This document shows, one piece after another, positions 11,591 through 62,360 of a stretch of DNA of 64,000 nucleotides. Source of the stretch: Ginglymostoma cirratum. Taxonomy: Eukaryota. The position numbers and the translations under genes were made by a program. Below the pieces are notes generated by a model, which saw only the letters and a list, made by a program, of their open reading frames with translations, was not told the DNA's origin and made no database searches. Position 1 is the first letter of the stretch. Each line of letters opens with the position of its first letter. Location of the stretch: the NCBI GenBank assembly GCA_024137785.1, contig JAHRHZ010000065.1:24914911-24978910 (forward strand), in the 5' to 3' direction.

Positions 11591-12204
11591 TGTTATGACA
11601 ATATATCAGAACCTCAAAGTATTTATTGATATTTTTAGACTTTAATGCCAAAATGAATTGATTTAAGAGACGGCTGCTACAGAGACAAAAAAGATTTGTG
11701 TTGGGCCAACGTGATGTAATACCTGAAGATGTCAAATAAACTTCAAAAAGACTGGGAGATAGTAAGAACTGCAGATGCTGGAGTCAGAGATAACAGTGTG
11801 GAACTGGAGGAACACAGCAGGCCAGGCAGCATCAGAAGAGCAGGAAAGCCGACGTTTCGGGTCGGGATCTCTTGAATATAATAATGAGATGCTGACAACT
11901 CAGCACATCAGCAAGCCACCCCCTGTGAATCACGTCTCAAAGTACAGACACATTTTGTATTTTTCCCTTTGAAGAAGGCACAAGGAAGTGGCTAAAAAGT
12001 CAGTTTCAGCTCTACTGGCATCGATTAGTGGGACTGACTGTTTACACGTGTACTTAGATTTGAGCCTTAGAATGCTATGCAGTTCACAGTTAAAGAACTA
12101 TTCCCCAGTTATCCCTGTGTAGGAAAGCAACAAAAGGGAGATCCCAGGTGAAGTTCCCAATTTTTTGTAGTTCCAGACACCGTACCCCAACCTGTCATCA
12201 TAAC
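11591..12204 (+). mobile_element. Possible LTR following the Gypsy RNase H fragment
   Basis: Begins TGTTATGA and ends TCATAACG (inverted termini), directly downstream of the pol remnant. No TSD confirmed. Confidence 0.4.
11755..11873 (-). mobile_element. Solo Penelope pLTR-tail unit with truncated hammerhead motif
   Basis: Closely similar to 26382-26505 and 37843-37968. Reverse strand reads ...cccgacccGAAACGTC. Confidence 0.8.
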
Positions 12205-13061
12205 GCACTAAAGGAAATTGAAGTTTTAGAGACATACTGCTTGGTGGTTAATAAATAGGACAAGCAACTAAAATCAATTTCAGAAGCAACTGATCAGGCT
12301 GCCTGATATTAATCAGTTATACAGCATAAGACCGTGGAATACTAATGGGTGACAGGCATGCCTGATAGAAATAATAGATTATCTTTGCTTGTCCAAAACT
12401 CAACAATCTCTGGGAAGAGATACACATTTATACAGCAGTAGCACTGGAGTATGCAGAAATTGCAAGTGTAAACCAATGTAGTAATTTATAGCTTCATCTG
12501 TACCAATAGCGTATTTTTCTGATCATCACATCGTGGATGATTTCTCCAATGTAGATTTCTGTATTTAGATTTCTGAAATCAAGGTGATTATGTATTTAAA
12601 AATGGCTCCATTTACCACACCTTAAATTATAATTGCTTTTCATAAAGAATTCAACACCATGCAATGAATCATAGTAAGCATAGTGTGTAGCCTGCATGCA
12701 AACAGCAGCTCAGGTCCAGGTATGCCCAGCCTAATTAGTCATCCAGCTATTTTCAAGTTCAAAGCTATCATTTCTAACACAGCAGCCAACTATTTACAAA
12801 CCAAAACCCTGAACAAGTAGCACCAGTGATGCAATATCAGGAATATATCATCGTCTCGACTCTCAAGCTTTCTTCCAGTGGAGGAGGAATGGGCAGGCAA
12901 ATAGAAGCAAATCTGAATTTCAGTTTGAGTTTTGACGCAAAGCTCAGAAAAAAAAAATCATAAAGGCAAGATAATATGTATGCCAGAGATCTTAAATACA
13001 AACAAATGCTGGAGATACTCAGCAGATCTGGCAGCATACGGAGAGATCTTGCCACAGATCC

Positions 13062-13705
13062 AAGAGACAAAAAGACTGCAGATGCTGGAATCCAAGGTAG
13101 CGAAAGAGGCGGCTGGAAAAACACAGCAAGCCGGGCAGCATCTGGAGGAGAAGTCGTCAACATATCAGGTATTATCCTTCTTCAGGGCTGGATGTGGGGC
13201 TAAGGGGAGCTACAGTTAAAGCGACGGTGGGGAGGGGGGTAGCAGAATGGTGGTGATAGGTGGACACCGGTAGCAGGTACGACCTGGTTGGGTGATTTGG
13301 AGAGATGAATCTGGTTGGTAGCTAGAATGGAAGGGAGGAGGCAGGGCTGTAAATGGAGCCCGGCGATTGATGGGAAGGTGATTTGAGTTAGAGAACTCAA
13401 CATCGAGTCCTCCGGGCTGTAGGCGGAAGATAAGGTGTTGTTCCTCAAATTTGCAATCCGAACACTGCAACACTGGAGATGGCCAAGGACGGACATGTTG
13501 CAGGAGGAAGAGGAATGGGTCAGGGAGTTTAGTGACTGGGAGGTTAGGTTGGTGAAGATGCTTGGCGAAATGGTCACCTAGTCTACGTTTGGTCTCACCA
13601 TTGTAGAGAAGACCACATCGGGAGCAACAGACGCAATAGACTAGGTTGGAGAAGATGCAGGTGAAACTCTCTCATCTGGAAGGACTGTTTAAGGCCCTAG
13701 ATTAA
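13062..13705 (-). mobile_element. Penelope-like element 3' fragment (GIY-YIG C-terminus plus pLTR)
   Basis: ORF 13216-13473 CKFEEQHLIFRLQPGGLDVEFSN matches the C-terminus at about 16050-16125. Degenerate hammerhead ctgaagaaggataatacctgatatgttg on the minus strand near 13158-13185. Confidence 0.8.
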
Positions 13706-15490
13706 GATGTTCCGATCTGAATTATCACAAACCAATTTTTTTTCTGAAAGATTGTCAAGTTCCTACACCTTGTACAACCTCTGACCTGATGCTACTGGAT
13801 TTAGGATTGGGAGATGAGATCAATCAACTGGCTTTCAAAACGTATAAGTCCAGTTCCTGTCATTTAGTCCTCAAAGCTAACGCTAAAATATTCTATTTAT
13901 ACAATTTATGTTCCAAATTCAACATTTACTTCAATTTATTCATGTACCAAGGTTGAAATAAAGAAATGACAAATCAATACTAGACAAACTGGGAGGAGCA
14001 CCATAATCAGTTTCATCCATTTGAAAAAAAGTAGCCACAAGAACTTGAGAGAGATTTTGGTTCAATTTTCTTTAGTGTGTCATTGGAGAGAGAGTGTTCT
14101 ACATGTTACAAAAAAAAGCAGTCACGTAAACTGTAATAGAGAATCATGGTGCCTGGTTCTGCTCCATCAAGGTTACCCTGAGATTTGTAGGACTTCACCA
14201 ATGGGATTTTTTAAAAATGAATTATTCAGTGGGTTGTGGACATTGTTGGCTATATTAATATTTATTACCCTTGATGAGGTTCCACAAAAAAACAAAAAGA
14301 TGGCGTGTTTCCCATCCTATCATTGAATTGCCTTGTTGGTTTGTCCGAAATCTGTCCATCAATGTGGCCTTCATTCAGTGCTCCTTTCAGGCAGGAGATT
14401 TTCCAGTTGCCAAAAGGCTCTGACTGTGAAGACTGTGACACCCCCAAGGCCTGCAGCAGCAGCCTTTTCTTCTAATGTTAACAAGTCTACCACGGGATAG
14501 CGCATGAGCATCTGAAGCATGGTAATGAAATTCTAGCCATTTGACACCAGAGCATATCTATTGCTTGTTCTTTGCTCTTTGTTAATCAACTGCTCATCAA
14601 TCAAGCCGCACAATAAAAACCTTCAGTTGCCCCATTCATATTTAACTCAAACAACATCTCACCCATTATTTACATTTAACCATTTAAATTTGTCACCAAA
14701 CACACGGTTGACAGAACAATCCCAACATTTAAACCTTGATTTTATTTCAGCTCCTTCCCCTTCAAAATGTAGCAGAGTTCACTTTTTAAGACATTTGACT
14801 AAACAGGGTTACAGATAACCCTCTCCTCCCATTCTCCACCTATCACTGTTCATTCAGCCAGATGGAGTTCAAATTGAATAGCATAAATGAAGCCCCATTA
14901 AAGGACAGCACAGTATACAGTCAGCCATAGACAGAGTTTAGGGCTGGGAAGTGCCAAACAGACAGAGAGGATGGACACTGAAAAATAGAGTCATGGAGGT
15001 ATACAGCACAGAAACAGGCCCTTTGGCCCAACTCGTCCATGTTGACTAGGTATCCCAAACTTAACTAGTCTCATTTTTCTGCATTTGGCTCATCTCCCTC
15101 CAAACATTTCTTTTTCATGTACTTATCCAAACATGTTTTAAATGATAACATTGTACTTGCCTCTACCACTTCCTCTGGCAATGCATCCCATATACGCACC
15201 ACTTTCTGTGTCAAAAGGGTGCCCCTCATGTCCCTTTTAAATCTGTCCCCTCTCGCATTAAACTTACGCCCTCTAGTTCTGGATTCCCCTACTCTGGGTA
15301 AAGGCCTTGGCTATTCATCTTATCTATCCCTCTCCTGATTTTATAAACGTCTATAAGGTCATCCCTCAACCTCCAATGCTCCAGGGAAAACTGCCCCAAG
15401 TCTATTCAGCCTCTTCCTATAGCTCAAACCCTCCAATTCTGGTGACATCCTTGTAAATATTATCTGCTCCCTTTGTGCAGTTTAATAACA

Positions 15491-16507
15491 AATAAAAACC
15501 GAAAGAACTGCGGATGCTGTAAATCAGGAACAAAAGCAAAGTTGCTAAAAAAGCTCAGCGGGCTTGGCAGCACCTGTGAAGGGAAAAAAAGCAGAGTTAA
15601 CGTTTCGGGTCCAGTCCACCAGGCATATATTCTCCTCCCCTCGCTTGTCCACCTTCCGTAGAGACTGTTCCCTCTGGGACACCCTGGTCCACACTTCCTT
15701 CACCCGCAACACCTACCCACAGCCCTACGGCACCTTCCCCTGTAACCGGCAAAGGTGACACACCTGCCCATTTACCTCCTCCCTCCCCAGAATCCAAGGG
15801 CACAAACATACCTTCCAGGTGTTCGCCTGCACTTCCCAGAATCTAGTCTACTGCATTCACTGCTCACGATGTGGTGTCCTCTACATTGGGGAAATGAAAC
15901 ATAGATTTGGCGACTGCTTCGCAGTACATCTACGTTCTCTCGCAAAAAAGATCCTGAACTACCTGTTGCCTGCCACTTCAACACACCACCCTGTTCCCTG
16001 ACCAACATGTCTGCCTCTGGCTTGCTGCAGTGTTCTAGCAAAGCTCAACGCAACCTGGAGGAACAGCATCTCATTTTCCACTTGGGGACCCTGCAGGCCT
16101 CCGGACTCAATATCGAGTTCAATCATTTTAGGGCCTAAACTCTCCCATGTCCCAGCCCCCCACCCCATACACCAGGCCTTGTTACCACATAGCCTGCCAT
16201 TACACATCCCCTGTTGTTAGTCATTCACAGTCCCCATTAAGAACTACTCACCCTCCCAGCCTGATCGTTAGTAACGCCTTCATCTGTCCCACTGTCTCTG
16301 TCTCTCTCTCTCTCTCTGTCTCTGGGCTCTATCCTATCGTTTACTCCCTAACCCACCCACCTCCCTATTTTCTGCATATAAACTGACGTTTTCCCAGGCC
16401 ACCATCAGTTCTGAGGAAGGGTCACCGGACCTGAAACATTAACTCTGTTTTTTCCTTCACAGATGCTGCCAGACCTGCTGAGCTTTTCCAGCAACTTTGT
16501 TTTTGTC
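15491..16507 (+). mobile_element. 5'-truncated Penelope-like element with inverted pLTR tail at its 5' end
   Basis: GIY-YIG ORF 15819-16001 NLVYCIHCSRCGVLYIGEMKHRFGDCFAVHLRS. 14-bp TSD GCAGTTTAATAACA (15477-15490, 16508-16521). Part of 15491-15614 is an inverted copy of the 3' tail. Confidence 0.92.
16407..16444 (+). ncRNA. Minimal type-I hammerhead ribozyme motif (PLE pLTR)
   Basis: AGTT-CTGAGGA-A-GGGTCACCGGACCT-GAAAC-ATT-AACT, with stem I AGTT/AACT and stem II GGTC/GACC. Confidence 0.7.
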
Positions 16508-17055
16508 GCAGTTTAATAACATCCTTCCTATAGCAGAACAACCAGAACTGTAGGCAGTATTCCAAATTTGGCCTCACTAATGTCTTGCACAGCTTTAACA
16601 TGATGTCCCAACTCCTGTACTCGATGACCTGACCAATGAAGGCAAGTGTGCCAAGTGCCTTCTTCACCACCCTGTCTACCTACAAGGAACTATGCACCTG
16701 AGCCCCTAGGTCTCTGTTTGACAACGCTCCCTACCATTAAGTGTGCAATGCCTGCCCTGGTTTGTCTTACCAAAATGTAACATCTCGCATTAATCTGAGT
16801 TAAACTCCATCTGCCATTCCTTGGCGCACCAATTTTGTTGCCATGTGCAAAACTTACTAATTATGCCTCTCATATTAGCATCCAAATCACTTGTATAAAC
16901 GATGAACAACAGTGGACCCAGCACTGATCCTTGCAGCACACCGCCTCCAGTCTGAAAAACAAGCTTCTACCACATCCTCTGTCTTCTACATCAAATCGAT
17001 TTTGTATCCAATTGGCTAGCTTTTCCTGGTCTCCACATGATCTAACCTTACTAAC

Positions 17056-17385
17056 TGTTGCCTCAAAACGTCAGGGACCAGGTTCGATTCCACCCTCAGG
17101 CGACTGTCTGATTGCAGTTTGCACATTCTCCCCATGTCTGCGTGGGTTTCAACTGGGTGCTCCTATTTCCTTTCAGTCCAAAAATGTGCAGGTTAGGTGG
17201 ATTGGCCACGCTAGCTTACTCATTGTGTCCAGGAATGTGCAGACAAGGTGAATTAGCCATGAGAAAATGCAGCGTTACAGGGATAGAATGGGCGGGGGGG
17301 GAATGAATCTGTGTGGGATGCTCCTCAGAGAGTCAGTATGATTAGATAGGCCAAATGGCCTATTTCCAAACTGTAGAGGTTCCAT
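17056..17385 (+). mobile_element. HE1-like V-SINE (5' truncated)
   Basis: B-box ggttcgattcc and V-domain gtttgcacattctccccatgtctgcgtgggtttc. Similar to 48741-49060. Confidence 0.85.
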
Positions 17386-17676: not shown

Positions 17677-18016
17677 GGAGGTGGTAGCATTGTAATAGTA
17701 TCAGTAACGTCATTTGGTGAGAAATCCAGAAACACTGACTAATGTTCTGGGGACACGACAAATCGGATCAAATGAAAAAAAAACCTGAAATAAAAGCTAA
17801 CGTAATGGGGACCAAATAACCACTGTCAATAATCCTAACACACTCCATCTAATTCACTAATGTCCTTTAGGAATAGAAATCTACCATACCTACCTGGTCT
17901 GGCCTGCATGTAACTCCAGAACCATAGCAATGTGTTTGTCTCTGTACTGCCCTCTGGGCAATCGCGGTGGGCAGTAATTTATAGCCTAGCCAGCAATGGC
18001 CACATCCAATGAATGA
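17677..18016 (+). mobile_element. Degenerate tRNA-derived SINE (family 2)
   Basis: Aligns by eye to 54118-54475 (tacctggtctggcctgcatgtaactccaga; tail cacatccaatgaatgaa). Confidence 0.7.
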
Positions 18017-18850
18017 ATACTTGAAATAATAATTTTATTATAATAAATACTTCAAATCACACATGTATCACTGTAGTTGGAGAAGAGGAACTTAGAAATT
18101 TGTGAAGTGCCAACCTCTACCTATGCCATCTGTCTTCAGACTTAACACGATTGCCCTCCTTCCAATCCCCCCCTCCAAATACCACCAGCAACCCTTCATT
18201 CTCACCTGCATGGAACTGCAATGACTATAAAATTGCAAACTCACATTTTAACTCTCAAAAATCGTATCAATAAAATGGTAGCAAGCCAGGAGTAAAAAGC
18301 CGAATCACAGAATTATTTATTTTATTTGCTTGAAAAAGACAAAATAAACTTGTGCTGTAACAACGAAATATTATTTTTACATGATACAAGTTTTACATGA
18401 TAATTTCAACTTCCACTTCTAACAACCACCAGATGGAAGAAGATTTGAAGAAAAAAATTTAAACTGAATGCATACGCAACAAAGTGAAATCCAACATTGT
18501 TAAGTGCTAATTAATGTACATTAGTGGAAGTCACATGTCCAAGAAAACCTGGAATGAGATCTGGAAATAACCAAAGTGTTATGTTCAGTCTGTACGTGTG
18601 TCCTACAATCAAGATATTCCATCCCTCACATCCTCAATTTATCTGTTCATGGACAATGCAAAATACTTGCAGATATTGGAACACTAGAAATCGTGGAATC
18701 AAATGAACTCTCATCCTAAGTTTTAGAAAATAATTTGTGGTGCCACAAATCTGTGGTACCGTCAGCTCGACAGGATATCAAAGTAACTTTTAATTAAATG
18801 TTAAACATTTGAAATAAATAAATTCAAATTGATACACTTCAATACATTAC

Positions 18851-24585: not shown

Positions 24586-26381
24586 AAAACTCCCAGTCCG
24601 TCAATGAAAGCTTCATGAAATTTCCAACGTGTTAACATGTTGTCAATTGTACAAGGCACTCAAAAATGCTTTAAAGTTTATTAGTTTTAAATACATGGCT
24701 CATAAAATACAAATAGATTGCTCCAGGCCCCCAAATAATTTTATTCTAATTATAGCAGCAAATTGCTGACTTGGGATATTTTGTATTAATTACAATTACG
24801 GCTTTTGAAATTTGGAAATTAAGTACAGAAGAACATAATACATTTACTACTGCTGACTTTCCAAGTTATTTTCCTCCCTTCTGTTGATCTCTTTGTAATC
24901 CACACCATTGTTTAGCTAAGTAAGGGAGCAATTAAGAAACTATCCATCAACATCAGTTGAACTGGCCGCTTCATGCACAGCAGTTTAGGGTAATTTCACC
25001 CCTTTCCCAAGGGAAACTTTGATTACAATGACACCAAGCAAAGTGTTGCAACTTTTCAAGAAATAACACTACATAAAATGTGAAAATTCTGCTTATTCGA
25101 AACTACAAAGCTTTAGAACTGTAAGTACTGAAAACTAAATGCAAAAGGTATACCAAAGATGTGGATGTTGGACATAAACAAATTAAAACCTGGAAACATT
25201 CAGCAGGTCTGACAGCATCTGTGCAGAATAATCATTAATTTGAAACCATAAGTGAAAAGATCTAGTTATGCAGCACAATGTGTCAGAATGCAGGTTCATG
25301 CATTCAAGTCCCTAAAGTTATACCCACCTGTAATGGTATGGGGACAAAGCACGTCCCATGGGGTAACTATAAAACGGTTAGACAGCTGTACACAGTTTTG
25401 AGATGCTCATGGGCACCTTCTAGTGGTCAAGTACATATCATAAAAATTAAGAATCTCATCCTTCCAGCAAAGATGTGTTTCATACAATCTGGCAAAACTT
25501 TCTAAAAGTCATGTTGAAGAGCTGTGGAACCGTAAGCAAGACATCGTAAGGGATGACTTGTGCATCAGTGGGGAATTTTTACATATAACGTACAAAGATA
25601 ACTGCAGTAAATTCACCGTACACATCCTTGAAGCTAATCTGAAGTATTAGATAAGGTCGGTTTTCACAAGTTAATGAGCTTTCTGCATGTGGCCAGCAAC
25701 CTTTTTTTTTGGAAATAGGTGTGGTATCTGCGGATTCTTTTCAAGTAAACACAGATTACACACTTCCCATAATTTGAATGTCCCTTGAAACTGGTGAAAA
25801 ATAATTAGCTTCAATGTCAAAACAAGACACATTTGTTTTGGAGCATCCTTGCTTTTTAGTTACCATTGCATTAAATGACACAAAAATGTCACTTACAAAC
25901 ATGCAACAGCCTGAAATTGTCTGTAAGGTGTGACTCTGAGTGCATGACTATGTCCCAGACACCACCGTCACCACCCTTCGATATGTCCTCTCCCACTGGC
26001 AGGACAGACCCAGCAGATGCAGTGGCACAGTGTTTTACAGTCAGGGGGAATTGCTCTGGGAGTCCTCAACATCAACTCTGGACCCCATGAAGTCTCATTG
26101 TTTCAGGTTAAACATGGGCAAGGAAATCTCCTGCTGATTACTTCCTACTGTCCTCCCTCAACTGATGAATCAGTACTCCTCCACGTTGAACAACATTTGG
26201 AGAAAGCACTGAGGGTGGAAAGGTCTTAAAACGTACTCTGGGTGGGGGATTTCAATGACCATCACCAAGAGTGGCTTGGCAGCAGCACTACTTGTCGAGC
26301 TGGTTGGGCCCTGCTAAACTAGGTCTGCAGCAGATGGTGAGGGAACCAACGAGAGGGAAAGACATACTTGACCTCATCATT

Positions 26382-28955
26382 CAGAGATAGCAAGAACTGC
26401 AGTTGCTGGAGTCAGAGAAAACACAGTATAGAACTGGAGGAACACAGCAGGCCAGGCAGCAAAGGAGTAGGAAAGCTCACGTTTCGGTTCAGGACCTTTC
26501 TTCAGAAATGGGGAGGGGGAAGGGAGCTCAAAAGACAAAGAGAAAGGAGGGGTTGGGCCGCAGAATGTAGGTGGGATGGTGATAGGTGAGTGCAGGTAGG
26601 CAGTGGTGGGGGTTGGTTAGTGGAATGAGTGAGGAGGATAGGTGGGAGAGAAGACGGACAGGTTGTAGTGGGTCAAAGGAGGTGGCGTTAAGAGGGAGGG
26701 TTGGACACAGGACGAGGCCGGGTTGGGGAGATTTTAAAACAGGTGAATTCCACATTTGGGCCATCGGGCTATAGGCTCCCAAGGCGGAATATGAGGTGTT
26801 GCTCTTTCAATGTGCGGGTGGTGTCATTGTGACACTGGAGGAGGCCCAGGATGGACATATCACCCAGCGAGTGGGGGCGGGGAGTAAAAATGGTTGGTGA
26901 CCGAAAGGTGTTGTTTTTTGTCATGTACAGAGCACAGATGCTCTACAAAACAGTCCCCGAGTCTATGATTGGTCTCACTGATGTAGGGGAGGCCACATAG
27001 GGAGCAACGGACACAGTTACAGATACAGGATTTACTCCAACTTGGAGGTGAACACCTGTTCAATATGAAAAGTTTGCTTTGGGCCTGGGATGGCGGTGAG
27101 GGGGGAGGTATGGGGAAGGTGTAACACTTCCTGTAGTTGCAGAAAAGGTGCTGAGTGTGGTGGGGTTAGTGGGGAGTGTGGACTGGACGAGGGGGTCGCA
27201 GAGCAAGTGGCCCCTACGAAAGGCAGATAGGGGTGAGGAGGGAAATATCTCTGGCCGTGGGGTTAGATTTTAGGTGGCAGAAATGGCAGAGAAGATGCGG
27301 AGGTTGGTGAGGTGGTATGTGAGAACCAGGGGGCTGCTGCATTTATTTATGCTGGAGGGAGGGGATGTGAGGGCAAAAGTGCGGGAAATGCAAGAGATGC
27401 GGTTGAGGGCATTTTCGATCACCCAAGGGAAGGGGGGGTTGCATGGGGTGGTAGGAGGTGGTCCTTGAAATAGGAGGACATCTGGGATGTTCGGGAGTGG
27501 AACGCCCCATCTTGGGAGCGGATGCGATGGAGGCAGAGGAATTGGGAGTAGGGAATCGCATTCTTGCGGGATGGTGGGTGGGAGGTGGTATAGTCCTGGT
27601 AGCTAAGGAAGTCGGTGGGCTTGAAATAGACGTTGGTGTTGAGGCGGTTACCGGAGATGGAGATGGAGAGGGAGAGGGGAGGGAGGTATTGGAGATGGTC
27701 CAGCTGAATTTGAGGTTGGGGTGAAAGGCGTTAGTAAAGTCAATGAACTGTCCAAGCTCCTTGTGGGAGCACGAGACACACCGATACAGTCATCCATGTA
27801 GCAGAGGAAGAGGTGGGGTATAGGGCCAGTGTAGCTGCGGAAGAGGGACTGTTCCACGTATCCAATGAAGAGGCAGGTATAGCTTGGGCCCATGTGGGTA
27901 CCCATGGCCACCCCCTTAGTCTGTAGGAAGTGGGAGGAGTTAAAGGAGAAGTTGTTCAGGGTATGGGCAAGTTCTGTTAAGTGGATGAGGGTGTCGGTGG
28001 AGGGGGATGGATTGGGCCTGCAGGAGAGTAAGAAGCGGAGGGCTTTTCGGCCATCTGCATTGGGAATGCAAGTATACAGGGACTGCATGTCCGTAGTGAA
28101 GATGAGGTGTTGGGGGCCAGGGAACTGGAAGTCTTGGAGGAGGTGGAGGGTGAGTGGTGTCCCGGACGTAGGTGGGGAGTTCCTGGGAGGCGTTAGAAGA
28201 CAGCATCAACGTAAGCGGAGATGAGCTCAGTGGGCAGGAGCAGGCAGAGACAATGGGTCAGCTGGGGCAGTCAGGTTTGTGGATTTTGGGAAGGAGATAG
28301 AAACAGGCGGTGCGGGGTTGGGGAACGATGAGGTTGGAGGCTGTGGGTGGGAGGTCTCCTGAGGTGATGAGGTTATGAATGGTCTGAGAGACAATGGTTT
28401 GGTGGTCAGGGGTGGGGTCATAATTGAGGGCCAGTAGGAGGTGCTGTCAGAGAATTGGCACCTGGCCTCGGCAATGTAAAGGTCAGTGTGCCATACCACA
28501 ACTGCCACCTCATTATCCATGGGTTTGATAGTGATGTTAGGGTTTGAGCGGAGGACTGTGCGTCCCATGGAGGGAAAGGTTGGAGTGAGTGAGAGGGGTG
28601 GAGACATTGAGGTGACCGATGTCACGATGGCAATTGGAAATGAAGAGGTCGAGGGAGGGTAGGAGGCTGTGGGGTGGTGTCCAAGAGAACGGGGTGTGCT
28701 GGAGGGAGGAGAAGGTGTCTGTAGAGGGTGGGTTAGACTCCCTGTCAAAGAAATAGGTGCGGAGATGGTGGAAAAGAGTTCGACATCCAAACGTGTACGA
28801 AATTCATCGATCTGTGGGCTCGGGGAATAAAGGCGAGCCCTTTGCTGAGGACTGTCTGTTCGTCCTCAGTGAGGGGGAGGTCTGGGGGGATGGTGAAGAC
28901 CCAGCAGGGCCTGGGTGTACGGCTGGTGTCGGAAGTGGTGGCGGCGGGAGTGCTG
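26382..28955 (-). mobile_element. Penelope-like retroelement (RT plus GIY-YIG pseudogene, pLTR with hammerhead)
   Basis: RT ORF 27648-28088 QSLYTCIP...NNFSFNSSHFLQTKGVAMGTHMGPSY...YMDD, NITIKPMD motif in ORF 28227-28790, and GIY-YIG CSLCGLPYISETNHRLGDCFVEHL. 8-bp TSD TCATCATT (26374-26381, 28956-28963) splits the host LINE LDLI|TNLP. Confidence 0.93.
26478..26505 (-). ncRNA. Hammerhead ribozyme motif in the pLTR of the long Penelope
   Basis: Minus strand reads CTGAAGA-AAGGTCCTGAACC-GAAAC-GTG. The triplet is GTG rather than NTH, so it is probably inactive. Confidence 0.55.
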
Positions 28956-29344
28956 TCATCATTACCAATCTGCCAGCTGCAGATGCATCTGTCCATGACC
29001 GTGTCAGTAAGTGACAACTCCACAAACTTTGCGGAGACGGAGTCCCATCTTCAAATTGAGAATACCATCAATTGTGTTGTGGGCACTACCACTGTCTTAA
29101 ATTGGACAGACTTCAAACAGATCTAGAAACTCAAAACTGGACATCCATGAGACGTGTGGGCCATCAACAGCGGCAGAAACTACTCCGCACAAACTATAAC
29201 CTCATGGCCCAGCATATCCCCCACTCAACCATTACTATTAAACCACGGGATCAACCCTGGTTCAATGAAGAGTGCAGGAGGGCATGCCAGGAGCAGCACC
29301 CGGCATACCTGAAGATAAGGTATCAACCTGGTGAGGCTACCAAA

Positions 29345-29548
29345 CTGTCAATGCAGTGTGGAGCTGGAAGGACACAGTAAGTCAGGCAGCATCAGAGGAA
29401 CAGGAGAGACCACGTTTTGGGTTTACATGCTTCATAGGGATAAAACGTGGTCTTTCCTGCTCTTCTGATGCTGCCTGACCTGCTGTGTTCCTCCAGCTCC
29501 ATACTGTATTGGCTCTGACTCCAGCACCTGCAGTTCTTACCATCTCCA
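29345..29548. repeat. Fold-back unit built from two inverted pLTR tails
   Basis: 65-bp arms 29354-29418 and 29442-29506 are near reverse complements, separated by a 23-bp spacer. Confidence 0.85.
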
Positions 29549-33222: not shown

Positions 33223-33359
33223 TAAACTAAGAATTATCATACTTGCCAAACTTGATTTGTAGAGGGAGTTCCAGTTTGCTGAAGTCAGAAGGGATAAATC
33301 ATTAAAATCAACAGCAATAACACACAGAAAACAAATGAGATCTGTTAAAGTGATAGAAA

Positions 33360-33535
33360 AATGAAATAAAAATAGAAAACACTGGAAACATTCAGAAGGT
33401 CAGGCAGCATCTGTGAATGGAGGAAGATACAGTTAACAATTTTTGAAGAAAGGTCATCAGTCTGAAACGTTAACCCTAACTTTTCTGTACAGATGGTACT
33501 TGACTAGATGAATGTTCCTAGTATTTTCTGTTTCC
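33360..33535. repeat. Degenerate fold-back pLTR unit with central hammerhead-like motif
   Basis: Arms gaaaacactggaaacattcagaaggtcaggcagcatctgt and acagatggtacttgactagatgaatgttcctagtattttc. Centre TTGAAGAAAGGTCATCAGTCTGAAACGTTAAC. Confidence 0.7.
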
Positions 33536-37097: not shown

Positions 37098-37842
37098 TTA
37101 AAATTTTTTAAAATCCATGACATAGCACGAATCAATTCCAACCTCACTTTTCCAGCAAATTTCCTCAGTCATACAACATAAGCCTATTCCAATGTACCTA
37201 ATAATCAGTAACTGCTTTATTACAGTAGTAAAAAATCTTGACCACCAACAATATCCAAATACTGACCAAACGTATGGAAATTGGACATGGCAGCTATGGA
37301 GATACATATGTGTTTCTGTAGATGAAAATTGAAAATAGCAAAGTGTTGGGGAGGAAGGTGGGAGAGGCAGAATATGGAAGACTCAGCAACACAATACTGG
37401 AGAAAGCAAAGCCATTCTTGCAAATTCAGTTCTGGGCCTTTGGTGAATGGGCAGGTGAGCAGGAAGCATACTGTTAGTTCAAGGTAATGCAACAAATCAC
37501 ACTTTACCATGTTGAATGAAGGATGAATGGCTGTTGTACAGCAGCCGCACCATGCCATTTAGGCTGAATTAAACAACTGCAGCTGTGTTTCTTCTATTGT
37601 TTCATTCTGCCTCAAACTGGGGCCAATTCACTGATGCACCTGACACTTTATATACTAGCCCTTCAATCAATCAAGCAAACTCACTACAATCAAGCAATAG
37701 AGATATTTATTGTTTGTTTGTTACTGGTCATTTTATGAGTAGCACTTACAGCAGCGGTGACTGAGAATGAAGAAGGAGCTGCAAACAGCTGTTAAAATGC
37801 CTGCTGGGCTCAGACTGTTTAACAAAGTACTTCTAAAGCATT

Positions 37843-37968
37843 CAGAGATAGCAGGAACTGCAGATGCTGGAAAATCTGAGATAACAAGGTGTAGAGCTGG
37901 ATGAACACAGCAGGCCAAGCAGCATCAGAGGAGCAGGAAGGCTGACGTTTCGGGCCTAGACCCTTCTT
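37843..37968 (-). mobile_element. Solo Penelope pLTR-tail unit
   Basis: Minus strand reads (TT)AAGAAGGGTCTAGGCCCGAAACGTC, flanked by the direct repeat AAGCAT (37836-37841, 37969-37974). Confidence 0.88.
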
Positions 37969-39039
37969 AAGCATGACAGGTTGCTTAATTCATTGAGAGG
38001 TTTGCAAATGATTTTCTACCACATGATGGCAGTGTGATGTGTCCACTAAACTGCACTTCCAATTCGAAATGCACGACAACACCAAGTCATATCTCATTGG
38101 AGATGCAGGAACATGCATTTTTATACACGTCTTGATTGCTCTCACTTATCATCAAGGACTCTGTTCACAATTTCAGCTTCTCAGTGAAGGGACTGATTGA
38201 TGAGTTTGTCAAATTATTTTTAAAATCACCAGCTTCACCAATCTACTCGTGCTTTTTAGTCTCTGGTGAGCAGAACACTGGTATGAACCTCACAAGCTGT
38301 GTTAGATTTTTAAAAAATCTTTGGATGTGGTGTCATTTGATAGGCCAGCATTTATTACCCATCCTTAATCGCCTTTCAAGTGATGGACAGTCCCCTTTTT
38401 TAACTGAAGTCCAGTAGGGCAGGGGTAGGTCCTTTCACATTGCTGTTAAAAACGGAGATCCAAGTTTGAAATGACAGAACACAATGGCACCCTCCCCCTC
38501 TCTATAACATAAAATGTATAGAACCCATACCATTCAGTATCCCACCTATAATGATTTCCCACAAACTAGGAACTGAGTAAAGAATCCGTGAACATGCTGT
38601 GCAATGTGTACGGATATAAAGACAGACCAACTATAGGAAAAAAACCAAAACAAGATGGAGAAGCAGAGAAGAAAGCTAGGATGCAGGTGCATATTCAAAA
38701 TGATAGTGAAAGACAGTAAAGCAAGGAAGAACAGATCACAGGAAGATGATTTTTTTAAAAAAAAGTTAGTTAAACTGCCAGAGTGAATTTGTAAATATAT
38801 TAAGGTTTTGAGTCAAAATGGTTTAGAAATCGAAGTTACTGGAGGGAGCAGATGATAGAGAGGTCTTCTCTCTCCTTGTTAAGATTGTTTAGTTTAGAAG
38901 ATTATAATATTTTGGGACCAAGAGCTTCCGACTTAAGGTAAATGAAAGGAGTCACTTTACTGTTCCAATTGTCGGCAGATCAAAAGGAGGCTTAGGTTGT
39001 TTTACAGAGAGAAAGATGCAAGGTATTTACATTTGAAGA

Positions 39040-42235: not shown

Positions 42236-42244
42236 TTGAAGTAG

Positions 42245-42678: not shown

Positions 42679-42870
42679 ATTAAAATTCATCTTTAAGTGT
42701 CAATAATCTCTACAGAGATTGTAACTGCTGAGTATTTCTAGCATTGCAACGTTTGCTTTTGCCATAATAAAGGGGAACTTCAAAAGTAGGATTTAAAAAA
42801 TGTTTTGCTATTAGTACCAGCTCCAGTTTTAGAGTTATCCAATACACAACCAAAAAAAAACAACAAAAGC

Positions 42871-43000
42871 ATTTCTGATGAAGGGTTTAGGCCCGAAACG
42901 TCAAGTTTTCCTGCTCCTATGATGCTGCTTGACCTGCTGTGTTCATCCAGCCCCATGCTTGTTATCTCGGATTCTCCAGCATCTGCAGTACCTTTTATCT
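42871..43000 (+). mobile_element. Solo Penelope pLTR-tail unit beginning at the hammerhead motif
   Basis: Close reverse complement of 37843-37968. Confidence 0.88.
42872..42905 (+). ncRNA. Minimal type-I hammerhead ribozyme motif, best canonical core in the window
   Basis: TTT-CTGATGA-A-GGGTTTAGGCCC-GAAAC-GTC-AAG has an intact CUGAUGA/GAAA core, a GUC triplet, stem II GGGU/GCCC and a weak stem I. Confidence 0.75.
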
Positions 43001-43224
43001 CAGAAGTAATTAAAACTACTTGCACTGTAAATAAAATTTTCAATGATTTGCAGCTGCACTTAAAGCACATTTGCAGATCTATAGGATGAATTGTTGAATC
43101 TCTGTAATACATCAAAGTATCTCCACATTCAAAAACTATTTATCTCAATCACTGAGCTGTTGCAACAAATTTATACAACTGTACTTACCTTTTCTCTCCT
43201 TGTCCCTCCCACCCATTTTTAAAA

Positions 43225-49060: not shown

Positions 49061-49194
49061 GTTAATAGTTAAAAAAGCAGGAACGAAAATGCAAAAAGTC
49101 AGTGGATTTTGGCGTTGGGTAAGTCACTCAGTTATGTGTGATAACGCTTCTGGGTATAAGAAAGGAAACACAAAAAATATAATAAAAATGGAAT

Positions 49195-49555: not shown

Positions 49556-49859
49556 ATGGAATCCCAATTATAATAATAAAATGAATATTCCTCAGGAGCC
49601 TACTGAAATATATTTTCATATATCAGTGTCATCAGAAACCAAGCATGATAAAATCCCAAATGCCAGTGATGTTATGGAGTCTGCTTAAATGAATTGGCCA
49701 GATACATCTCATTTATTTTTCCCTTTTGATTCATCCCTTAACTGTGTCTGTTTGCCTGTCTTTGTGACAAAGTAGAGATAGGATCAATGAAGATTGGGTT
49801 AAAATTATAACCATTAAAGAGACAACTTTAAAATGAAACAATGAATGAGAGATGTTGAA

Positions 49860-49975
49860 GACCTGAAACAAAACTAGAAATTGTTGGAGAAACTCAGGAG
49901 TTATGGCAGCATCTTTAAGGAAGGGTCACTGCCTTTTCTTCACAGATCTGAGTTTGTCCAGCAATGTGTTTTTGA
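49860..49975. repeat. Degenerate fold-back pLTR unit
   Basis: aaattgttggagaaactcag...ggcagcatct-ttaaggaagggtcact-...cacagatctgagtttgtccagcaat has the same layout as 52220-52440. Confidence 0.55.
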
Positions 49976-51860: not shown

Positions 51861-52219
51861 AAATCACACAATCTTCTTTTAAAAGTGGGTGTTCTATTTG
51901 CCTACAAAATAATTTATACACTTCCAAAGTAATCCATTGGTTCTGAAGAACAATGTAATGCTCTGAGGATGTGACATGATGCAAAATGAGGCAAGTTATT
52001 TCCCCTTCTTCCAAACAAAGACAAGATTTTTAAAAAGTAAGCATCCCTATGCATTCATATTGGCGCTTGTCTACATTTCCAAGCTTAGAGACACTAAATA
52101 AATGAAAATTGCTGCTGTGTAGACGTGCTCACATGCAGTAAGAGCCTGCATTTGCGTTGTGCCTTACCATGCCCTTATGATGTACTAATATTCCCCAGAA
52201 CTAACAAATTCTTTTTTCA

Positions 52220-52440
52220 TGAACAAAAAGTTGCTGGAAAAGCTCAGCAGGTCTGACAGCATCTGCTAAGAAAAAAATCAAAGTTAAGGTTTCCTCAGTT
52301 CTGAGGAAGGGTCACTGGACCCGAAACATTAACTCTGATTGTTTTCTTCACAGATGCTGCCAGATCGGCTCAGCTTTTCCAGAAACTTCTGTTTCGGTTC
52401 CTGATTTACAGCATCTGCAGTTCTTTCAGTTTTTATTCGG
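52220..52440 (+). mobile_element. Fold-back pLTR mini-element with hammerhead and 13-bp TSD
   Basis: TSD AATTCTTTTTTCA (52207-52219, 52441-52453). Inverted arms gttgctggaaaagctcagcaggtctgacagcatctg and cagatgctgccagatcggctcagcttttccagaaac. Confidence 0.9.
52297..52334 (+). ncRNA. Minimal type-I hammerhead ribozyme motif
   Basis: AGTT-CTGAGGA-A-GGGTC-ACTG-GACCC-GAAAC-ATT-AACT, with a perfect 5-bp stem II and 4-bp stem I. Confidence 0.75.
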
Positions 52441-52624
52441 AATTCTTTTTTCAATTGCTTTTATTGTAAGTAACCTGGTCAGTTTCAAGGGAAACAGCAT
52501 CACCTGCAAGTCAATAATAACTTCATTATACAAAGGCTCTGATTACCTTATGAGTACTTACATCAAAGAATGAGCGCATTCAGATAATATTCTGATCTAA
52601 GAAGGTAGAAATAGTAGAGAAGTA

Positions 52625-53570: not shown

Positions 53571-54925
53571 AAGCAGTTTAAAACTGAAAGAGATCGTTTA
53601 AAAATAAACTGGTGCTCAAAGCAAGTGCAAGCTTCAAAAATGTTACTCTCAGCACCACACAAGCACTGACCCATCTGTACACTTGGTTTATTAATGGAGA
53701 CTGAGGCTTAAATACAATTTGTGTTTACAAAGATAGCGTGCTGCAGTGCTGACCAAAGCAGCTTGTGGAATCAATGAGTCATAAACATTACTGAGCACAT
53801 ATCTGGCATCTACTTTCGACATGCGACGTGAAATCTCAAATATCATTGGGGGAGCAGGTCAATTTTCTACCCTTTACCCTAATCACGCTGTCAACATCCC
53901 TCTTTGGTGGGTCCAATGTGAGTTGGATGGTTTTTCCTCCTTTTTTTAAAAAATCCGTCTGTTGTTTCATTAGGGGTTTAGACTAGTTCCGTGGCAGGGT
54001 CCTAGCAGTATGGCCCACAATCATCTTCCTGGCCACTAATAAATCTCAATATCTTCAGGATTATTGGCTTGCACAAGTAACAGATCTCAACTAAACCAAT
54101 CAAGTTAAGAACACTCAAGCGGCGGTGATGGCCTAGTGGTATTAAATCGTTGGACTGTTAATCTAGAGACCCAGATCATGTTCTGGGGACCTGGGTTCGA
54201 ATCCCGCCATGGCAGATGGTGGAATTTGAATTCAATAAATATCTAGAATTAAGAGTCTACTGATGATCATAAATCAATTGTCAGGAAAAACCAACCTGAT
54301 TCACTCATGCCCTCTAGGGAAGGAAACTGCCACCCTTACCTGGTTTGGCCGACACGTGACTCCAGACGCACGGCAATGTGGTTGACTCTCAACTGCTCTC
54401 TGGGCAATTAGGGATGGGCAATAAATGCTGCCCTAGCCAGCAACACCCTCATCCCATGAATGAAAAAGGAAAAAACAATTCACACACTTGACATGTATTC
54501 TAAGTGGAAGCTGAAGTTTACATCCATCATAAAGCCAGTCTGAAGCCTTCCTCAATAGGAGAGGCCTGGCATAACAGAGTCCACTATTTGCTGGTCAGTT
54601 CTATACATTCCCAGCGAAGACAATCACCCAGAAATTCTCTAATATCCCACACAGTTGGCAACTGAGAAACCATACTTTGGCTCCTATGCCAATGAAGTGA
54701 TTATCAACTCAAGCAATTTCCTCCAAGCCTGTCTGCAAACTGAAATAGTAGTGGAAATACATGATTTAAACAAAACAGTTCCATATCTAGAGGAGTTACT
54801 TCAAGGTCAAATTTATGTGCTCACTGCTAATGATTTAACATGAATATTATGAATTCCAATATCCGGCATTGCCATTTTTACACACACAGTGGACTTGAAT
54901 CAGAGCATTTAATATCACCTTCCAT
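53117..54925. repeat. Long inverted repeat: arms 53117-53403 and 54638-54925
   Basis: Manual alignment gives 10 substitutions and 1 indel over 288 bp (about 96%), with a 1234-bp spacer. Confidence 0.95.
54118..54475 (+). mobile_element. Full-length family-2 tRNA-derived SINE
   Basis: A-box TGGCCTAGTGG, B-box GGTTCGAATCC, and 3' tail gggcaattagggatgggcaataaatgctg...catcccatgaatgaa. Confidence 0.9.
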
Positions 54926-54942
54926 GAGATAGGCTTGCTATT

Positions 54943-55080
54943 AATAAAACAGTGTGGATCTGGAGGAACCCAGCAGGCTGGGCAGCATCAGAGGGGCAGA
55001 AAAGCTGAGTTTCGGGTCGGGACCCTCCTTCAGAAATTTCCCATCTCTGACGCCAGCATCGGCAGTTCTTACTATCTCTA
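54943..55080. mobile_element. Rearranged pLTR unit with minus-strand hammerhead-like motif
   Basis: Minus strand reads CTGAAGGAGGGTCCCGACCCGAAACTC, followed by an opposite-orientation tail end (ccagcatcggcagttcttactatctct). Flanked by the direct repeat CTTGCTATT. Confidence 0.8.
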
Positions 55081-56548
55081 GACTTGCTATTGTACTTTTC
55101 AACTCACATGTTTCCCTGAAGCCTGAAAATTTGAAATTACGACAATAGATTAGGTTAACACATAGGTGAGATTGGATGGAAGAAGGACAATCAACAGAGT
55201 ATTCCTTAATCATTGGAATAAACATTAGAGAGACCGAAAAGCAGCGTCAACTTAAAGAAGAGAGACAAATTGTGCCTCTAAAGACAAATCAGAAACAGAA
55301 AGGAAATGAGAAGGAAGAAAGATCAAGAGAAGGACGGTATGAATGGTTTAAGTGTACAACTTGACATTTTATTAAGTGTTCCTGAAAATTTAAAAACCTA
55401 AAGGAATTAGACTTTACGCTTGCAATATTTTCGGATCCAGAAAGATCAATTGAAAGTAATTAACACTCATTTATGTTGTCAAATGGGTACTTACAGTCGT
55501 AGCAGTGTGACTTAAACTTTGTAGCAAATATAATGGGCAAATATGGCATGTTTCTAAACGTAAAGAAAAAGCCAAGGGCAAGATGCAATCTTGGCAAAGC
55601 CAACTGAAAGGCAACACAAGTCCACCACACCAACTATAAATCAGCTCCCTGCCTAAATTTGCTACATCCTTATTGACAAATAACGGTGAGCAACATTATC
55701 CTTGCTGTTATTTTGACTGCAAATTTTTGTCCATTCATCTAAAAATGTTCACGATATTCCACAGCACAACCTGACGACAAACATTGAGATAATTAGATGA
55801 CATATTGTCCAATCCGGTTTTGCTGTGTATAGAAGGTGATTCAACTGTGAACTACAGTTTTAATTTACTTTAATCCATTCAAACAATTTTTCATCAATAG
55901 ACGACTGCCTTGTTAATTATATTAAATCTGAATTTCAACTCAATTTATAATTAAAATCATTTTGCACCAAAAGACAGCAGACAAACAAGTCAGTCAAATC
56001 CTGCTAATATATAAATGGAGTAAACATTTGGATTTTTTTTAAAGCATTCAAACTGGATTATTGGATTCTGAAGCTTAAATTTTTTGCACTTTCTCTATGG
56101 GGTACAATTTTAAAAAGTCTCCACTGATTGAAGACAAAGCTAGGGAGGATTTTGTACCTTTTCATCATTCAAAATCATCTATTTATCGGTACCTGAAACT
56201 AAACCAAAGAAATGAAAGCAGCACAGACAGCCCTACCCAATATCCAGCATTTCATCTACATACTTTATCATCGTCATAAGCATTAGAACACAGCACCATG
56301 TACAAACTGTTCCTTTTGAAGTCTTCTGGAAGATCGCAGTTGTAATAAATAAAACGAAGTAATAATGAATTAATTTTTTTAAATCATCTGCATTGGCAGC
56401 TGCTGACTCCAAGTGAGAGTATGCATTATTTAAGCTGAGTAAGCTCATTTCACATTTGATAACTTGAGGTTGTCAAAGGTCAGACACCATGCTAGCAGTC
56501 CATCAAATGTAAAGCAATGTGTCAAAGGCTATTGAGGCTGCTGCCACT

Positions 56549-56562
56549 GTTGTTATGGTAAC
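56549..56562. promoter_or_regulatory. RFX X-box motif
   Basis: GTTGTTATGGTAAC fits GTTnyyATrGnAAC. Confidence 0.4.
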
Positions 56563-57417
56563 TCTATGCTCGAGTATGCATCGAGTATCAGGATAAATTC
56601 ATCACAAAAACATCCAAAAAGCCAAGGCAACTCTTAGAGTTAATCATAGGATTATACTGCATCATATGCAGCAGTTCTTGTGAGGACTATTGTTTTCATT
56701 TTTCCACATACGGAATGATTTTGCAGGTACAAGGCTTTGTGTGTAGCAAAAATCTCTTCACAACATATCAATGTGATCAAAGATATTTGTTGAACAAGTA
56801 CTTGCCTCCGGCAGAGAAAAGAAAAATCTCTGAAGCAATTCCTAACTGGCAATACATCAGACAACAAAATAAGAGACAAAACCTGCTTCACAAATTGAAA
56901 GCTCTGCAGACATTCATAGACCATTGCAAATTGAGATGTTGGAGGAAACGCAAATAAAATGGCATTCGTGAAGGCACCATTTTACAACTCAGCCACAGAC
57001 TGCAGAATCATACCCACCACTCTGAGGAAGAAGGTTTGCTACAGGTTTAAGCACGATACCAGCAACTCACCAGTTAAGCCCAGCCAGCCATCTGCCAGTA
57101 TACATCCTGGGGCCCTTTCAGATCAGAATAACCCCCATCACAGAAATGGAAAAACCTGGAAGTCGGTAGCAAGCAGTTGATTAATCAAGCTGTAGATTCT
57201 CTATTAAAACATTTTGCAGGTAATGGGTCAGCACCAGCGTTTGCCTGGCTTTCCTCTCTTAGGGCCTCCAAATAATACAATAGTCTAACCAATCCTTGTT
57301 CTGCTGCTTTATTTCAGATCCATTCACGGCCGTGGGTATACATTGAATTCTTAACAATGCCTGCCTCCATGATGAAAAAGGAAAAGTAGTTTTCTGCCTA
57401 CATAATGCCTTCCAACT

Positions 57418-57431
57418 GTTACCGTGGCAAC
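57418..57431. promoter_or_regulatory. RFX X-box motif
   Basis: GTTACCGTGGCAAC is near-palindromic, with a further GTTGCAAC half-site cluster about 10 bp downstream. Confidence 0.45.
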
Positions 57432-60129: not shown

Positions 60130-62030
60130 GGAGGGGACCATCAAATCCTGTGAACTCTGGATATCAAGGGATAAACAGCATTAGATTAAGACAAAAAGAG
60201 AGGCTTAAGGAGGATACCGAGGGCTCAAAACAGCAGAAGCCCTACAGGAGTATAGAATGTGCAAGAGGGAACTTAGGAGAGCCAGAACGGGTATAAGAAA
60301 GGATGCTGGAGAAAGGAAAATCTTAAATTGATTTACAGGTACATTAAGGGTAAAAAGATAATGAGAAAAAGAGTAAGGCCCAGTTAAGAACTGCAGCAGT
60401 AATTTCTGCATAGAGCCAGAGGATGTAGGAAGGGTTCTAAATTAATATTTTGTGTCAGCCTTCAATAATGAGAGGAATGATATGGGTATCGAAATCAAGG
60501 AGAAGATCAGTGATACAATTAAAGAAATTAATGTAGACAGAAAAACAGTTCTGAGTGGTCTGGTGAGTTTGGAAATAAATAAATACCCAGGGCTGAAACA
60601 AAAGTATTCCTGGTTGTTGAATCAGGCAAAGGAGAAAATAGCAAGGGTGCTTGTAAAAATTTTTAATTCCTCCCTGGCTAGGGGAAATGGGTCAGAGAAG
60701 TGAGGGACATTTGACCGGGAAATTACAGGCCAGCGAGTCTAACCTTGGTGGAGGAGAAAATGAATGGAAGCAGTTCTGAGGGACAGAATTAATCTGTACT
60801 CAGAAAGTCAGGGATTAATCAAGCTTAGTCAACATGGTTCTTATATTAAGAGGAGGTCATGTCTAACAAACTTGATTGAATTTTTTGAAGAGAAGATTAG
60901 GTATGTAGATGAGGGCAATGTTTTTGATGGCTTCTACTTGGATTTCAGCAAGTTTTTTTGCTGAGGTCCCAAATGGGAGACTGATAGCAAAGGTAAGAGC
61001 CAATGGAATCCAAGTAAGTTTGACAAATTGGGTTTACAATTAGCTGAGTGGCAGGAAGTAGCGAGTGATGGTTGAGGAGTGTTTTTCCAACTGGAAGTCT
61101 ATGTTCAGTGGGGTCCCACAGGGGCCAGTGTTGGACCCTTTGCTGTTTGTGATTTATATAAATGATTTACACTTGAATGTCGGAGGATTGATCAATAAAG
61201 TCGTAAGTTATTCAAAAAATGGCCGGGTGGTATATAGTGAGCCTTCGACTACAAGAGGATATAGATGGACTGGTCAGATGGGCTGATCATTGAGAATTGG
61301 AATTCAATTTAGATAGAATGCAAGCTGATGCACTTGGGCAGGATAAACGATGCAAGGGAATAACATAATGAACAGTAATATCCTGGGGACGCACCAAGAA
61401 TCACAAAGACCTTAGTGTGCACGTATGTTGATCCCTTAAGGTATGAGGATAGGTGGATAAAGTAGTTAAGATGGCACATGCAATACTTGGAACTATGTAG
61501 ACAGTTGATTAGGTGACAGCTAGAGTATTGTGTGTAGTTCTGGAATCCACATTATAGGAGACGTACAGAGGGGATTTAACAGGATGTTGCCTGAGCTGGA
61601 GCATTTCAGTTAGCAAGAGGGATTGGACAGACTGGGGTTGTTTTCCTTTGAGCAGAGAATCCTGAGAAGGAACATGATCGAGTTGTGTAAAATTATGAGG
61701 GCCATAGATAGGGTAGACAGGAAGAAAGTTTTCTCTTTGATGGAGGGATGAATGACCACGAGACAAAGATTTAAGGTAAGAGGCAGAAGGTTTAGAGGAG
61801 AAGTTGGGGAAAAGTCTTTTCACCCAGTGGGTGGTGGAAATCTGGAACTCACTGCCTGTAAGGGTGGCTGCGCAGAAACCCCCATAACATTTAAGTAGTA
61901 TTTAGATGCGAACTTGCGATGCCAAGGCATACAAGGCTATGGACTAATTGCTGGGAAATGGGATTCGAATAGTTGGGTGGTGGTTTTTGACTAACACACA
62001 TTCATCTGTGCTGTAGATATCTATGACTCT
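60130..62030 (+). mobile_element. CR1-like LINE, about 1.9 kb of ORF2 and 3' end
   Basis: SQHG...SCLTNLIEFFEE...YLDFSK (ORF 60764) and SGVPQGPVLDPLLFVIYINDL (ORF 61065). Tail ctatgactctatga. Confidence 0.92.
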
Positions 62031-62333
62031 ATGATCAGGACTTGATGATCAAGGAAGGTGTATTCATAAAGCGTCCAAACAGGTGGATTATGAACCTGAA
62101 AATTCTTACAACAGACACCAAAGGCAGCTGTTAAGAACAGGAGAGATTCCATGTCAACCATTTCATGCAAAAATGTTGGAGCCTCTCCTGTCACTAGCCT
62201 ACAACACGTAGGAGTGCACAATGCCACGGAAACTCAGACTTTGAGTTTATATTTGTTACATACCACTATCAACAAGCATCTTTTATTCTTCCTCAGCTAC
62301 TTTCCCCTGTATAATGTGCAACATTTTCCCATT

Positions 62334-62360
62334 CTGATGAGAGTCACCGATCTGAAACAA
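62334..62360 (+). repeat. Degenerate pLTR hammerhead-like motif
   Basis: CTGATGA-GAGTCACCGATCT-GAAAC-AA, preceded by a pyrimidine-rich pLTR-like stretch. Stem II is poor and there is no NTH triplet. Confidence 0.4.

Follow-up and report, generated by a model that had tools for sequence, protein, structure and literature searches.

We analysed a 64,000-nucleotide (nt) stretch of the nurse shark genome (Ginglymostoma cirratum, assembly GCA_024137785.1, contig JAHRHZ010000065.1, positions 24,914,911 to 24,978,910), hereafter the window, in which an original prediction made from the letters alone had named ten hammerhead ribozyme motifs. It had ascribed them to the pseudo-long terminal repeats (pLTRs) of Penelope-like elements (PLEs) and had proposed that most belong to units without coding sequence. 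Alignment to natural copies of two families, A and B, identifies nine of the ten sites as pLTR ends of endonuclease-bearing (EN+) PLEs; the tenth, at 62334, is marginal, as both the triplet and the pLTR tail are missing. Penelope-like origin and the minimal type-I hammerhead are thus supported by the pLTR alignments and by the copy at 42875, which matches the full descriptor. The elements and their hammerheads are already known; for the most part the window holds inert stubs of PLE ends rather than a new family of ribozymes.

Penelope-like units in the window

The units are listed below in window coordinates (TSD, target-site duplication; RT, reverse transcriptase; C3, the core position from which distances are counted).

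1691..1789 (+): pLTR remnant, tail only.
11756..11861 (-): older family A unit with a long tail, no TSD found; named site 11851, a genuine pLTR end starting within stem II, so that the first core half is absent.
12995..13037 (-): pLTR remnant, tail only.
13063..13703 (-): old PLE 3' end with endonuclease fragment (13303-13671), decayed hammerhead (C3 at 13185) and tail; named site 13158, genuine, decay in the second core half.
15477..16521: two-armed family B insertion between 14-bp TSDs (15477-15490 and 16508-16521), comprising an inverted long-tailed arm (15491-15615, -), an endonuclease fragment (15618-16132, +), TATAAA (16377-16382) and a hammerhead with C3 at 16411 (+), whose core, 5-bp stem II and 4-bp stem I are kept and whose stem III is lost through CG to CA.
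25155..25231 (-): pLTR remnant, tail only.
26381..29050 (-): older, 5'-truncated family A element with a frameshifted RT, a zinc linker and GIY-YIG remains (tblastn, 26694-28960) and a decayed hammerhead (C3 at 26505); named site 26478, genuine, stem II broken and position 17 a G.
29349..29546: older family A two-armed fold-back unit, core decayed; absent from the original list.
33328..33533: old family B-like two-armed unit; named site 33443 (+), genuine, C3 altered.
37830..37974 (-): older family A coding-less unit with a long tail, TSD of 12 bp with one mismatch (37830-37841 and 37963-37974); named site 37944, genuine, starting a few bases into the core, the letters before it being the TSD.
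42870..43001 (+): young family A coding-less unit starting 5 nt before C3 (42875), with the long 3' end and its tail of ~35 nt; core intact, 4-bp stem II, C-G stem III, GUC triplet and 4-bp stem I.
49851..49921 (-): pLTR remnant, tail only, with a PLE RT fragment upstream on the same strand (50292-50476).
52207..52453: two-armed coding-less family B insertion between 13-bp TSDs (52207-52219 and 52441-52453), with an inverted short arm up to 52293 and a direct arm from 52295 (C3 at 52301, +); core, 5-bp stem II and 4-bp stem I kept, stem III lost through CG to CA.
54930..55091: two-armed coding-less older family A unit, 13-bp TSD with one mismatch (54930 and 55079), with a minus arm (54944-55037) starting 4 nt before C3 (55033) and an inverted tail piece (55043-55078); named site 55007 (-), genuine, core decayed with A9 altered, stem III short of one base.
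62334..62358 (+): hammerhead-core-like string.

Six of the nine genuine sites are broken or cut in the core (seven of ten with 62334), and among the ten a complete minimal hammerhead is found at 42875 alone. A descriptor scan of the window for a hammerhead core with a stem II of at least 4 bp returned three motifs (16411, 42875 and 52301), against a mean of 0.16 and a maximum of two in 100 dinucleotide shuffles; the C-G pair and the triplet survive in only one of them, 42875. The Rfam hammerhead models had no match in the window at E<=1, RNA folding of single copies gave no significant z-scores, and the minimal hammerhead fold is weak (z -0.7 to -0.9). Two other candidates were dropped: a core-like string at 31782 (+), unmatched in the examined loci, and Rfam microRNA-precursor matches at 29373-29487, which correspond to the fold-back unit and score far under the gathering thresholds. 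For the 62334 motif itself no genomic match was found; its alignment to family B upstream and core sequence scores 20, against a shuffle maximum of 18 (best of 12 references), and it is a probable but unproven very old remnant of that family.

According to tblastn, exactly three sites adjoin RT or endonuclease remains (13158, 16411 and 26478), the same three that had been proposed as coding-linked. Several arms had been missed, including 15491-15615, 29349-29546, 52217-52293, 1691-1789, 25155-25231 and 49851-49921. Four insertions, one of them coding-linked, carry TSDs of 12-14 bp (15477/16508, 37830/37963, 52207/52441 and 54930/55079) and were therefore inserted separately. No convincing TSD was found at 42870 (within 3.4 kb upstream), 11756, 13063, 26381, 29349 or 33363, and there are no head-to-tail arrays of units in the window. 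The dense population proposed for the window turned out to be ordinary, as the flanks are as rich: we counted 18 arms in the window and 22 in the 80 kb flanking it, with thresholds that differ between the two counts.

The order of domains is that of EN+ PLEs, with an RT (RVT_1 match at 27651-28205, E 6.5e-5, under the cut-off) followed by a C-terminal GIY-YIG endonuclease (E 2.7e-4 in locus L035, above the cut-off in L277). Between them, the L035 translation shows the CX2-5CxxC linker common to Neptune and Nematis (PMC8557442). The pLTR, the inverted 5' arm, the optional tail of 30-40 nt and the TSD are likewise those of EN+ PLEs. Copies end at ~+94 or ~+128 from C3, ~35 nt apart, and the final ~35 nt, which are the known PLE tail, are usually missing from one arm of the two-armed copies that we inspected.

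Family A includes 42875, 37944, 11851, 26478, 55007 and 13158, and family B 16411, 52301 and 33443; with a third family, C, elsewhere in the genome, the proposal of at least two subfamilies holds. Stem I reads AUUU/AAGU in family A, AGUU/AACU in B and AGCU/AGCU in C, and pair 2 of stem II changes from G-C to A-U between families; in the family C loci L284, L285, L287 and L312, stem I is self-complementary and stem II has an A-U pair. Stems I and II do covary: in 10 copies picked by hand from the three families, 3/7 stem pairs show two-sided changes and 92.9% of cells are paired. The lack of covariation that was to count against the original prediction is therefore not observed, although the result is descriptive only, as the sequences are related and 174/500 shuffles reach the same pair count. 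The claim that stem II changes between copies while keeping its pairing stands only between families, since the variants quoted for it are mostly one-sided changes or decay. Dimer cleavage is reportedly the subject of a study by Lunse et al.

The 42-base core of the 42875 copy has 27,457 exact matches in the 4.36-Gb genome, ~0.4 per 64 kb, so that finding a single young copy in the window is nothing unusual. The family B pattern has 863 exact matches.

A fixed 5' edge and the origin of coding-less units

Adding 13 upstream bases to the core 42-mer reduces the exact matches from 27,457 to 13,854. We examined 96 distinct exact-core copies, unselected for upstream sequence (loci L031-L120, the first 96 of 100 listed places). 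In 46 of them the sequence runs on into the body of the element, and their 5' ends range from 25 to >1,450 nt; the other 50 stop within 10 nt before C3, versus 2.9 expected from the stop rate of 0.3% per nt measured further upstream (binomial p 7e-50). Of the 52 non-continuing copies obtained using a shorter core, 45 match over 3-6 nt before C3. The sequence upstream of the stopped copies could be read in 37 of 50 cases and consists of inverted arms (12) or other DNA (25), the latter often TSD. A similar edge is found in family B, whose upstream sequence is different, as 20/30 copies start at -6..0 (judged by eye). Copies running on into the start of the open reading frame (ORF), which lies ~170 nt downstream in L011, are rare (694 matches); among the 14 that reach the core region, eight start at the edge, four continue into the body and two start just inside the core. 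L011 itself begins at the fixed edge while running into the ORF. Matches starting at -4 and -5 number 1,870 and 1,347, respectively, under the same filter as a search for copies starting at the hammerhead cleavage site, which gave 799 pattern matches (66 of 100 listed being true junctions).

Coding-less units had been suggested to form a non-autonomous family of their own. Their separate insertion is borne out by the TSDs, but an independent family is not supported by comparison with body-linked copies: the major haplotype is carried by 37/50 coding-less and 32/46 body-linked copies (p=0.66), divergence is 1.1% versus 1.3% (p=0.77), and the two 3' ends are mixed alike in both classes (p=0.41). 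No stub-specific lineage with diagnostic variants was found in these 96 copies, a small sample of low diversity as far as haplotype and divergence are concerned. Both classes are consistent with having one source.

The base preceding the edge and the sequence upstream of it provide further information. We counted preceding bases by hand in 100 listed places per class, after dropping point mutants (7 at -4, 11 at -5 and 34 at the cleavage site). A G precedes the -4 edge in 62/93 copies and the -5 edge in 36/89, both more often than the cleavage site, where it does so in 11/66 (Fisher p 3e-10 and 1.5e-3, respectively). Capped full-length L1 insertions are marked by such an extra G (PMC11702581). 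Upstream of the A at -4, the word TATWWA occurs at -31 in family A, -29 in B and -30 in C; it is unique within 600 nt upstream in each family reference and among body-linked copies it falls at -28..-32 in 39/44 of family A, 14/15 of B and 1/1 of C. In the window, it is carried by copy 16411 (at 16377). The TATA box is located outside the stub, although a TATA-independent promoter could lie within it. The word around the A at -4 is, by our own assessment, initiator-like in families A and B, not in C. The fixed edge thus likely marks the capped start of the element RNA.

We consider it rather probable (about 0.7) that coding-less units arose by run-off copying of capped PLE RNA, of which they hold the initial ~95 or ~130 bases, and are dead ends. 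RNA polymerase II would initiate at the A located 4 nt ahead of C3, or close to it; this A is at the same time the first stem I base. The TATA box used would come from the 3' end of the copy lying upstream. The element protein would then nick genomic DNA and prime reverse transcription inside the RNA, at +94 or +128. On an RNA starting at the edge, the enzyme would reach the cap after 95-135 nt and there add a C opposite the cap or slip on the U run. The run-off complementary DNA (cDNA) could subsequently join the target to give a solo stub, fold back or re-prime on the other strand to give a two-armed stub, or jump to another RNA position to give a composite, while an RNA continuing upstream of the edge would yield ordinary 5'-truncated coding-linked copies. 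The template would be mostly uncleaved by the hammerhead. Neither the TATA box nor the downstream RNA on which a related protein depends is present in the stubs, which would therefore mostly not move again.

Parts of this scheme have in vitro counterparts in Anolis PAc, whose protein primes at two internal RNA sites downstream of the hammerhead, needs RNA past the initiation sites (172 nt of ORF), uses uncleaved RNA as its main template and gives products whose length tracks the RNA 5' end (PMC11167929). The 3' ends at ~+94 and ~+128, present in both classes of copies, match the two PAc internal initiation sites plus the tail.

Several observations weigh against the run-off interpretation. Part of the G excess may come from re-copied element pieces, although it persists after their exclusion by hand (~38/63 vs 7/50), and T is no less frequent than G at the -5 edge (41/89). 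The edge itself is spread over ~4 nt, its largest class (23/52) matches three Ts only, and the upstream side is unreadable in 13/50 stopped copies. Ordinary truncation contributes as well, since ~9/30 copies selected by a downstream word end within the hammerhead region. Family C is represented by a single body-linked copy and lacks the initiator-like word, while the conserved A at -4 may be kept for stem I pairing. Poly(A) RNA reads on a natural copy show no site where many molecules begin or end; they are strand-balanced, 93% continue into unrelated sequence, and they give no information on the start site, on cleavage or on circular RNA of unit length. Finally, the Drosophila virilis Penelope promoter is internal and TATA-less (PMC2377424), and the TATA layout is therefore not universal.

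A pause site on long RNAs, where no RNA end would exist but the enzyme would stall or fall off just after it has unwound the hammerhead or on the U run, could also produce a fixed edge: in every family the edge is where stem I ends, numerous copies likewise break off within the hammerhead region, and T-run extensions fit slippage. We nevertheless find it decidedly unlikely, as neither the extra G nor the TATA word that three families carry at -29..-31 is explained by it, the minimal fold is weak, and a stall caused by structure should occur on the 3' side of a stem. Slightly less credible still is the original prediction of an independent SINE-like (short interspersed element) or retrozyme-like family, transcribed from the stubs and moved in trans by the PLE protein. 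About half of the 27,457 young cores lack a body, stubs have their own TSDs and fixed ends, the long stub keeps the short initiation site plus 34 nt, and non-autonomous PLE derivatives have been described (Chlamys, PMC8557442; retrozymes, 10.64898/2026.07.22.740005). However, in addition to the shared haplotype, divergence and 3'-end mix, all 96 sampled copies are distinct on their flanks, with no common stub-specific junction, the TATA box is outside the stub, and besides the lack of head-to-tail arrays in the window, the first 100 listed places include a single same-strand pair, 94 nt apart.

Hammerhead cleavage or pLTR recombination is a poorer explanation still and is largely refuted for the main stub class. 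Some copies do start at the cleavage site, and Adineta solo pLTRs without TSD have been ascribed to recombination or deletion (PMC3846280), but the main edge lies ~32 nt upstream of the cleavage site with the whole core kept, and copies starting at the cleavage site are fewer than those of the -4 and -5 classes. Recombination would retain the body-side flank with its TATA region, and G or T runs would not be expected from it.

The run-off interpretation could be extended into a full replication scheme, although we regard this as doubtful. PLE replication would then involve an obligatory retrovirus-like strong-stop step, with priming always ~100-130 nt from the cap and transfer of the short cDNA by homology to the 3' pLTR of the RNA, possibly trimmed by the hammerhead to its first ~33 nt; stubs, fold-backs and composites would be failed transfers. 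If true, this version would account for how pLTRs are regenerated, for stubs and body-linked copies being nearly 1:1 and for the position of the hammerhead exactly at the transcription start.

Other features of individual copies may be mentioned here. The youngest unit is preceded by a G at 42869 and by an A-rich tract (42846-42869) that directly abuts this extra G. Similar A runs link internal element pieces to the edge at several loci of a query-biased set (L001-L030); a poly(A)-jump origin of the tract, drawn from that set, was unconfirmed in the unbiased set and was set aside. In 26 of 30 copies running from the tail to the ORF start (L121-L150), the ORF piece ends at +163..+320 from C3 (the search pattern set a minimum of +156), and a second pLTR or body piece is attached to most of them; these ends may show at which point the enzyme takes hold of the RNA again, close to its binding site. 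L011:620-1655, located between 15-bp TSDs, consists of an inverted short arm, an edge-started pLTR running through 640 nt of ORF, AAAAA, G and a second edge-started pLTR, and is a partial tandem formed in one event. Seamless junctions of body, pLTR and ORF start in L121, L125, L137 and L140 indicate that read-through tandem (or circular) templates also exist.

Surroundings of the units

The units had been placed inside a host transcription unit, for which we found no confirmation: there was no host-protein Pfam match above the cut-off in 219 of 257 window ORFs (at least 62 aa) or in 150 of 164 ORFs of the flanks (40 kb on each side), although short exons could be missed by this search, and a crude exon scan gave nothing convincing. 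Pfam matches in flank ORFs are RT and GIY-YIG only, and those in the window are mostly retroelement-type or sub-threshold. An ALKBH8_N match (40589-40792) is above the cut-off, but the surrounding ORFs look to us like the remnant of a long interspersed element (LINE). A PIP5K match (55170-55361) is weak, and a protein-cluster (Atlas) search with 56562-56954 returned unnamed clusters, with recognition below a useful level.

Other repeats are present in the window:

7971-11219: decayed pieces resembling a long terminal repeat (LTR) retrotransposon, with integrase (8842-9060, sub-threshold), RT-RNase H (11004-11219) and a duplication of ~195 bp (7971-8164 and 9486-9673).
53117-53408 and 54633-54925: inverted repeats of 293 bp, 96% alike and 1.2 kb apart, possibly a non-autonomous DNA transposon.
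17054-17250, 29911-30233 and 48741-49060: dispersed repeat family of 200-360 bp.
17845-18019, 49191-49545 and 54129-54481: second dispersed family of 200-360 bp, probably SINEs because of a weak tRNA-like arm near 54166-54209 (sub-threshold Rfam match).
2725-3551 with 14989-15373 and 16509-16816; 23762-24070 with 42351-42658; 39737-39957 with 61637-61865; and 40306-41218: presumably old LINE-like fragments.

Comparison with known systems

If the run-off interpretation is correct, tens of thousands of young insertions form an in vivo record of the probable start of a vertebrate PLE RNA and of the points at which its copying starts and ends. It would tie the internal priming of Anolis PAc in vitro to genomic products and account for single minimal hammerheads vastly outnumbering full elements, while pLTR regeneration and the role of the hammerhead would become testable questions. 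It also calls for caution, as genomic hammerhead counts would mostly tally inert stubs. We found no published start-site or cap origin for solo pLTRs in the main texts of the open-access literature.

The hammerheads closely resemble those of metazoan PLE pLTRs (PMC4209133, Cervera and De la Pena 2014), with the same 4-bp stem I, extra A before stem II, G10.1-C11.1 pair and palindromic C-G replacing stem III. That study likewise reports thousands of dispersed single motifs and close opposite-strand pairs, and finds such hammerheads in the Xena, Poseidon and Neptune elements of fishes. It considers single motifs to be probably truncated PLEs, and the fixed 5' edge, extra G and upstream TATA seen here are not described in the parts of it considered here.

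Neptune/Nematis-type EN+ PLEs (PMC8557442, PMC3846280) share the C-terminal GIY-YIG domain, CX4CxxC linker, pLTR, TSDs, inverted 5' arm and a tail of 30-40 nt on one arm only, and the Adineta Pen2a pLTR has a TATA box and an initiator-like word, as here (PMC3846280). In the known EN+ PLEs, however, solo pLTRs are few and partly ascribed to recombination, whereas here they make up about half of a very large young family.

In Anolis PAc (PMC11167929), too, there are two 3' ends that lie downstream of the hammerhead and are separated by the length of one tail, the template is uncleaved, and in vitro the RNA 5' end sets the product length. PAc differs in being a Poseidon element whose ORF starts in the hammerhead, rather than well downstream as in L011, and solo stubs are not discussed in the parts of that paper considered (no occurrence of "solo"). 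Non-LTR retrozymes (10.64898/2026.07.22.740005), present in a chondrichthyan, share the type-I hammerhead, the derivation from pLTRs, the lack of coding sequence and the existence of dispersed monomers. They are defined by tandem units with a hammerhead in each, whereas the units in the window are solo or inverted pairs and never comprise two or more head-to-tail units with complete hammerheads.

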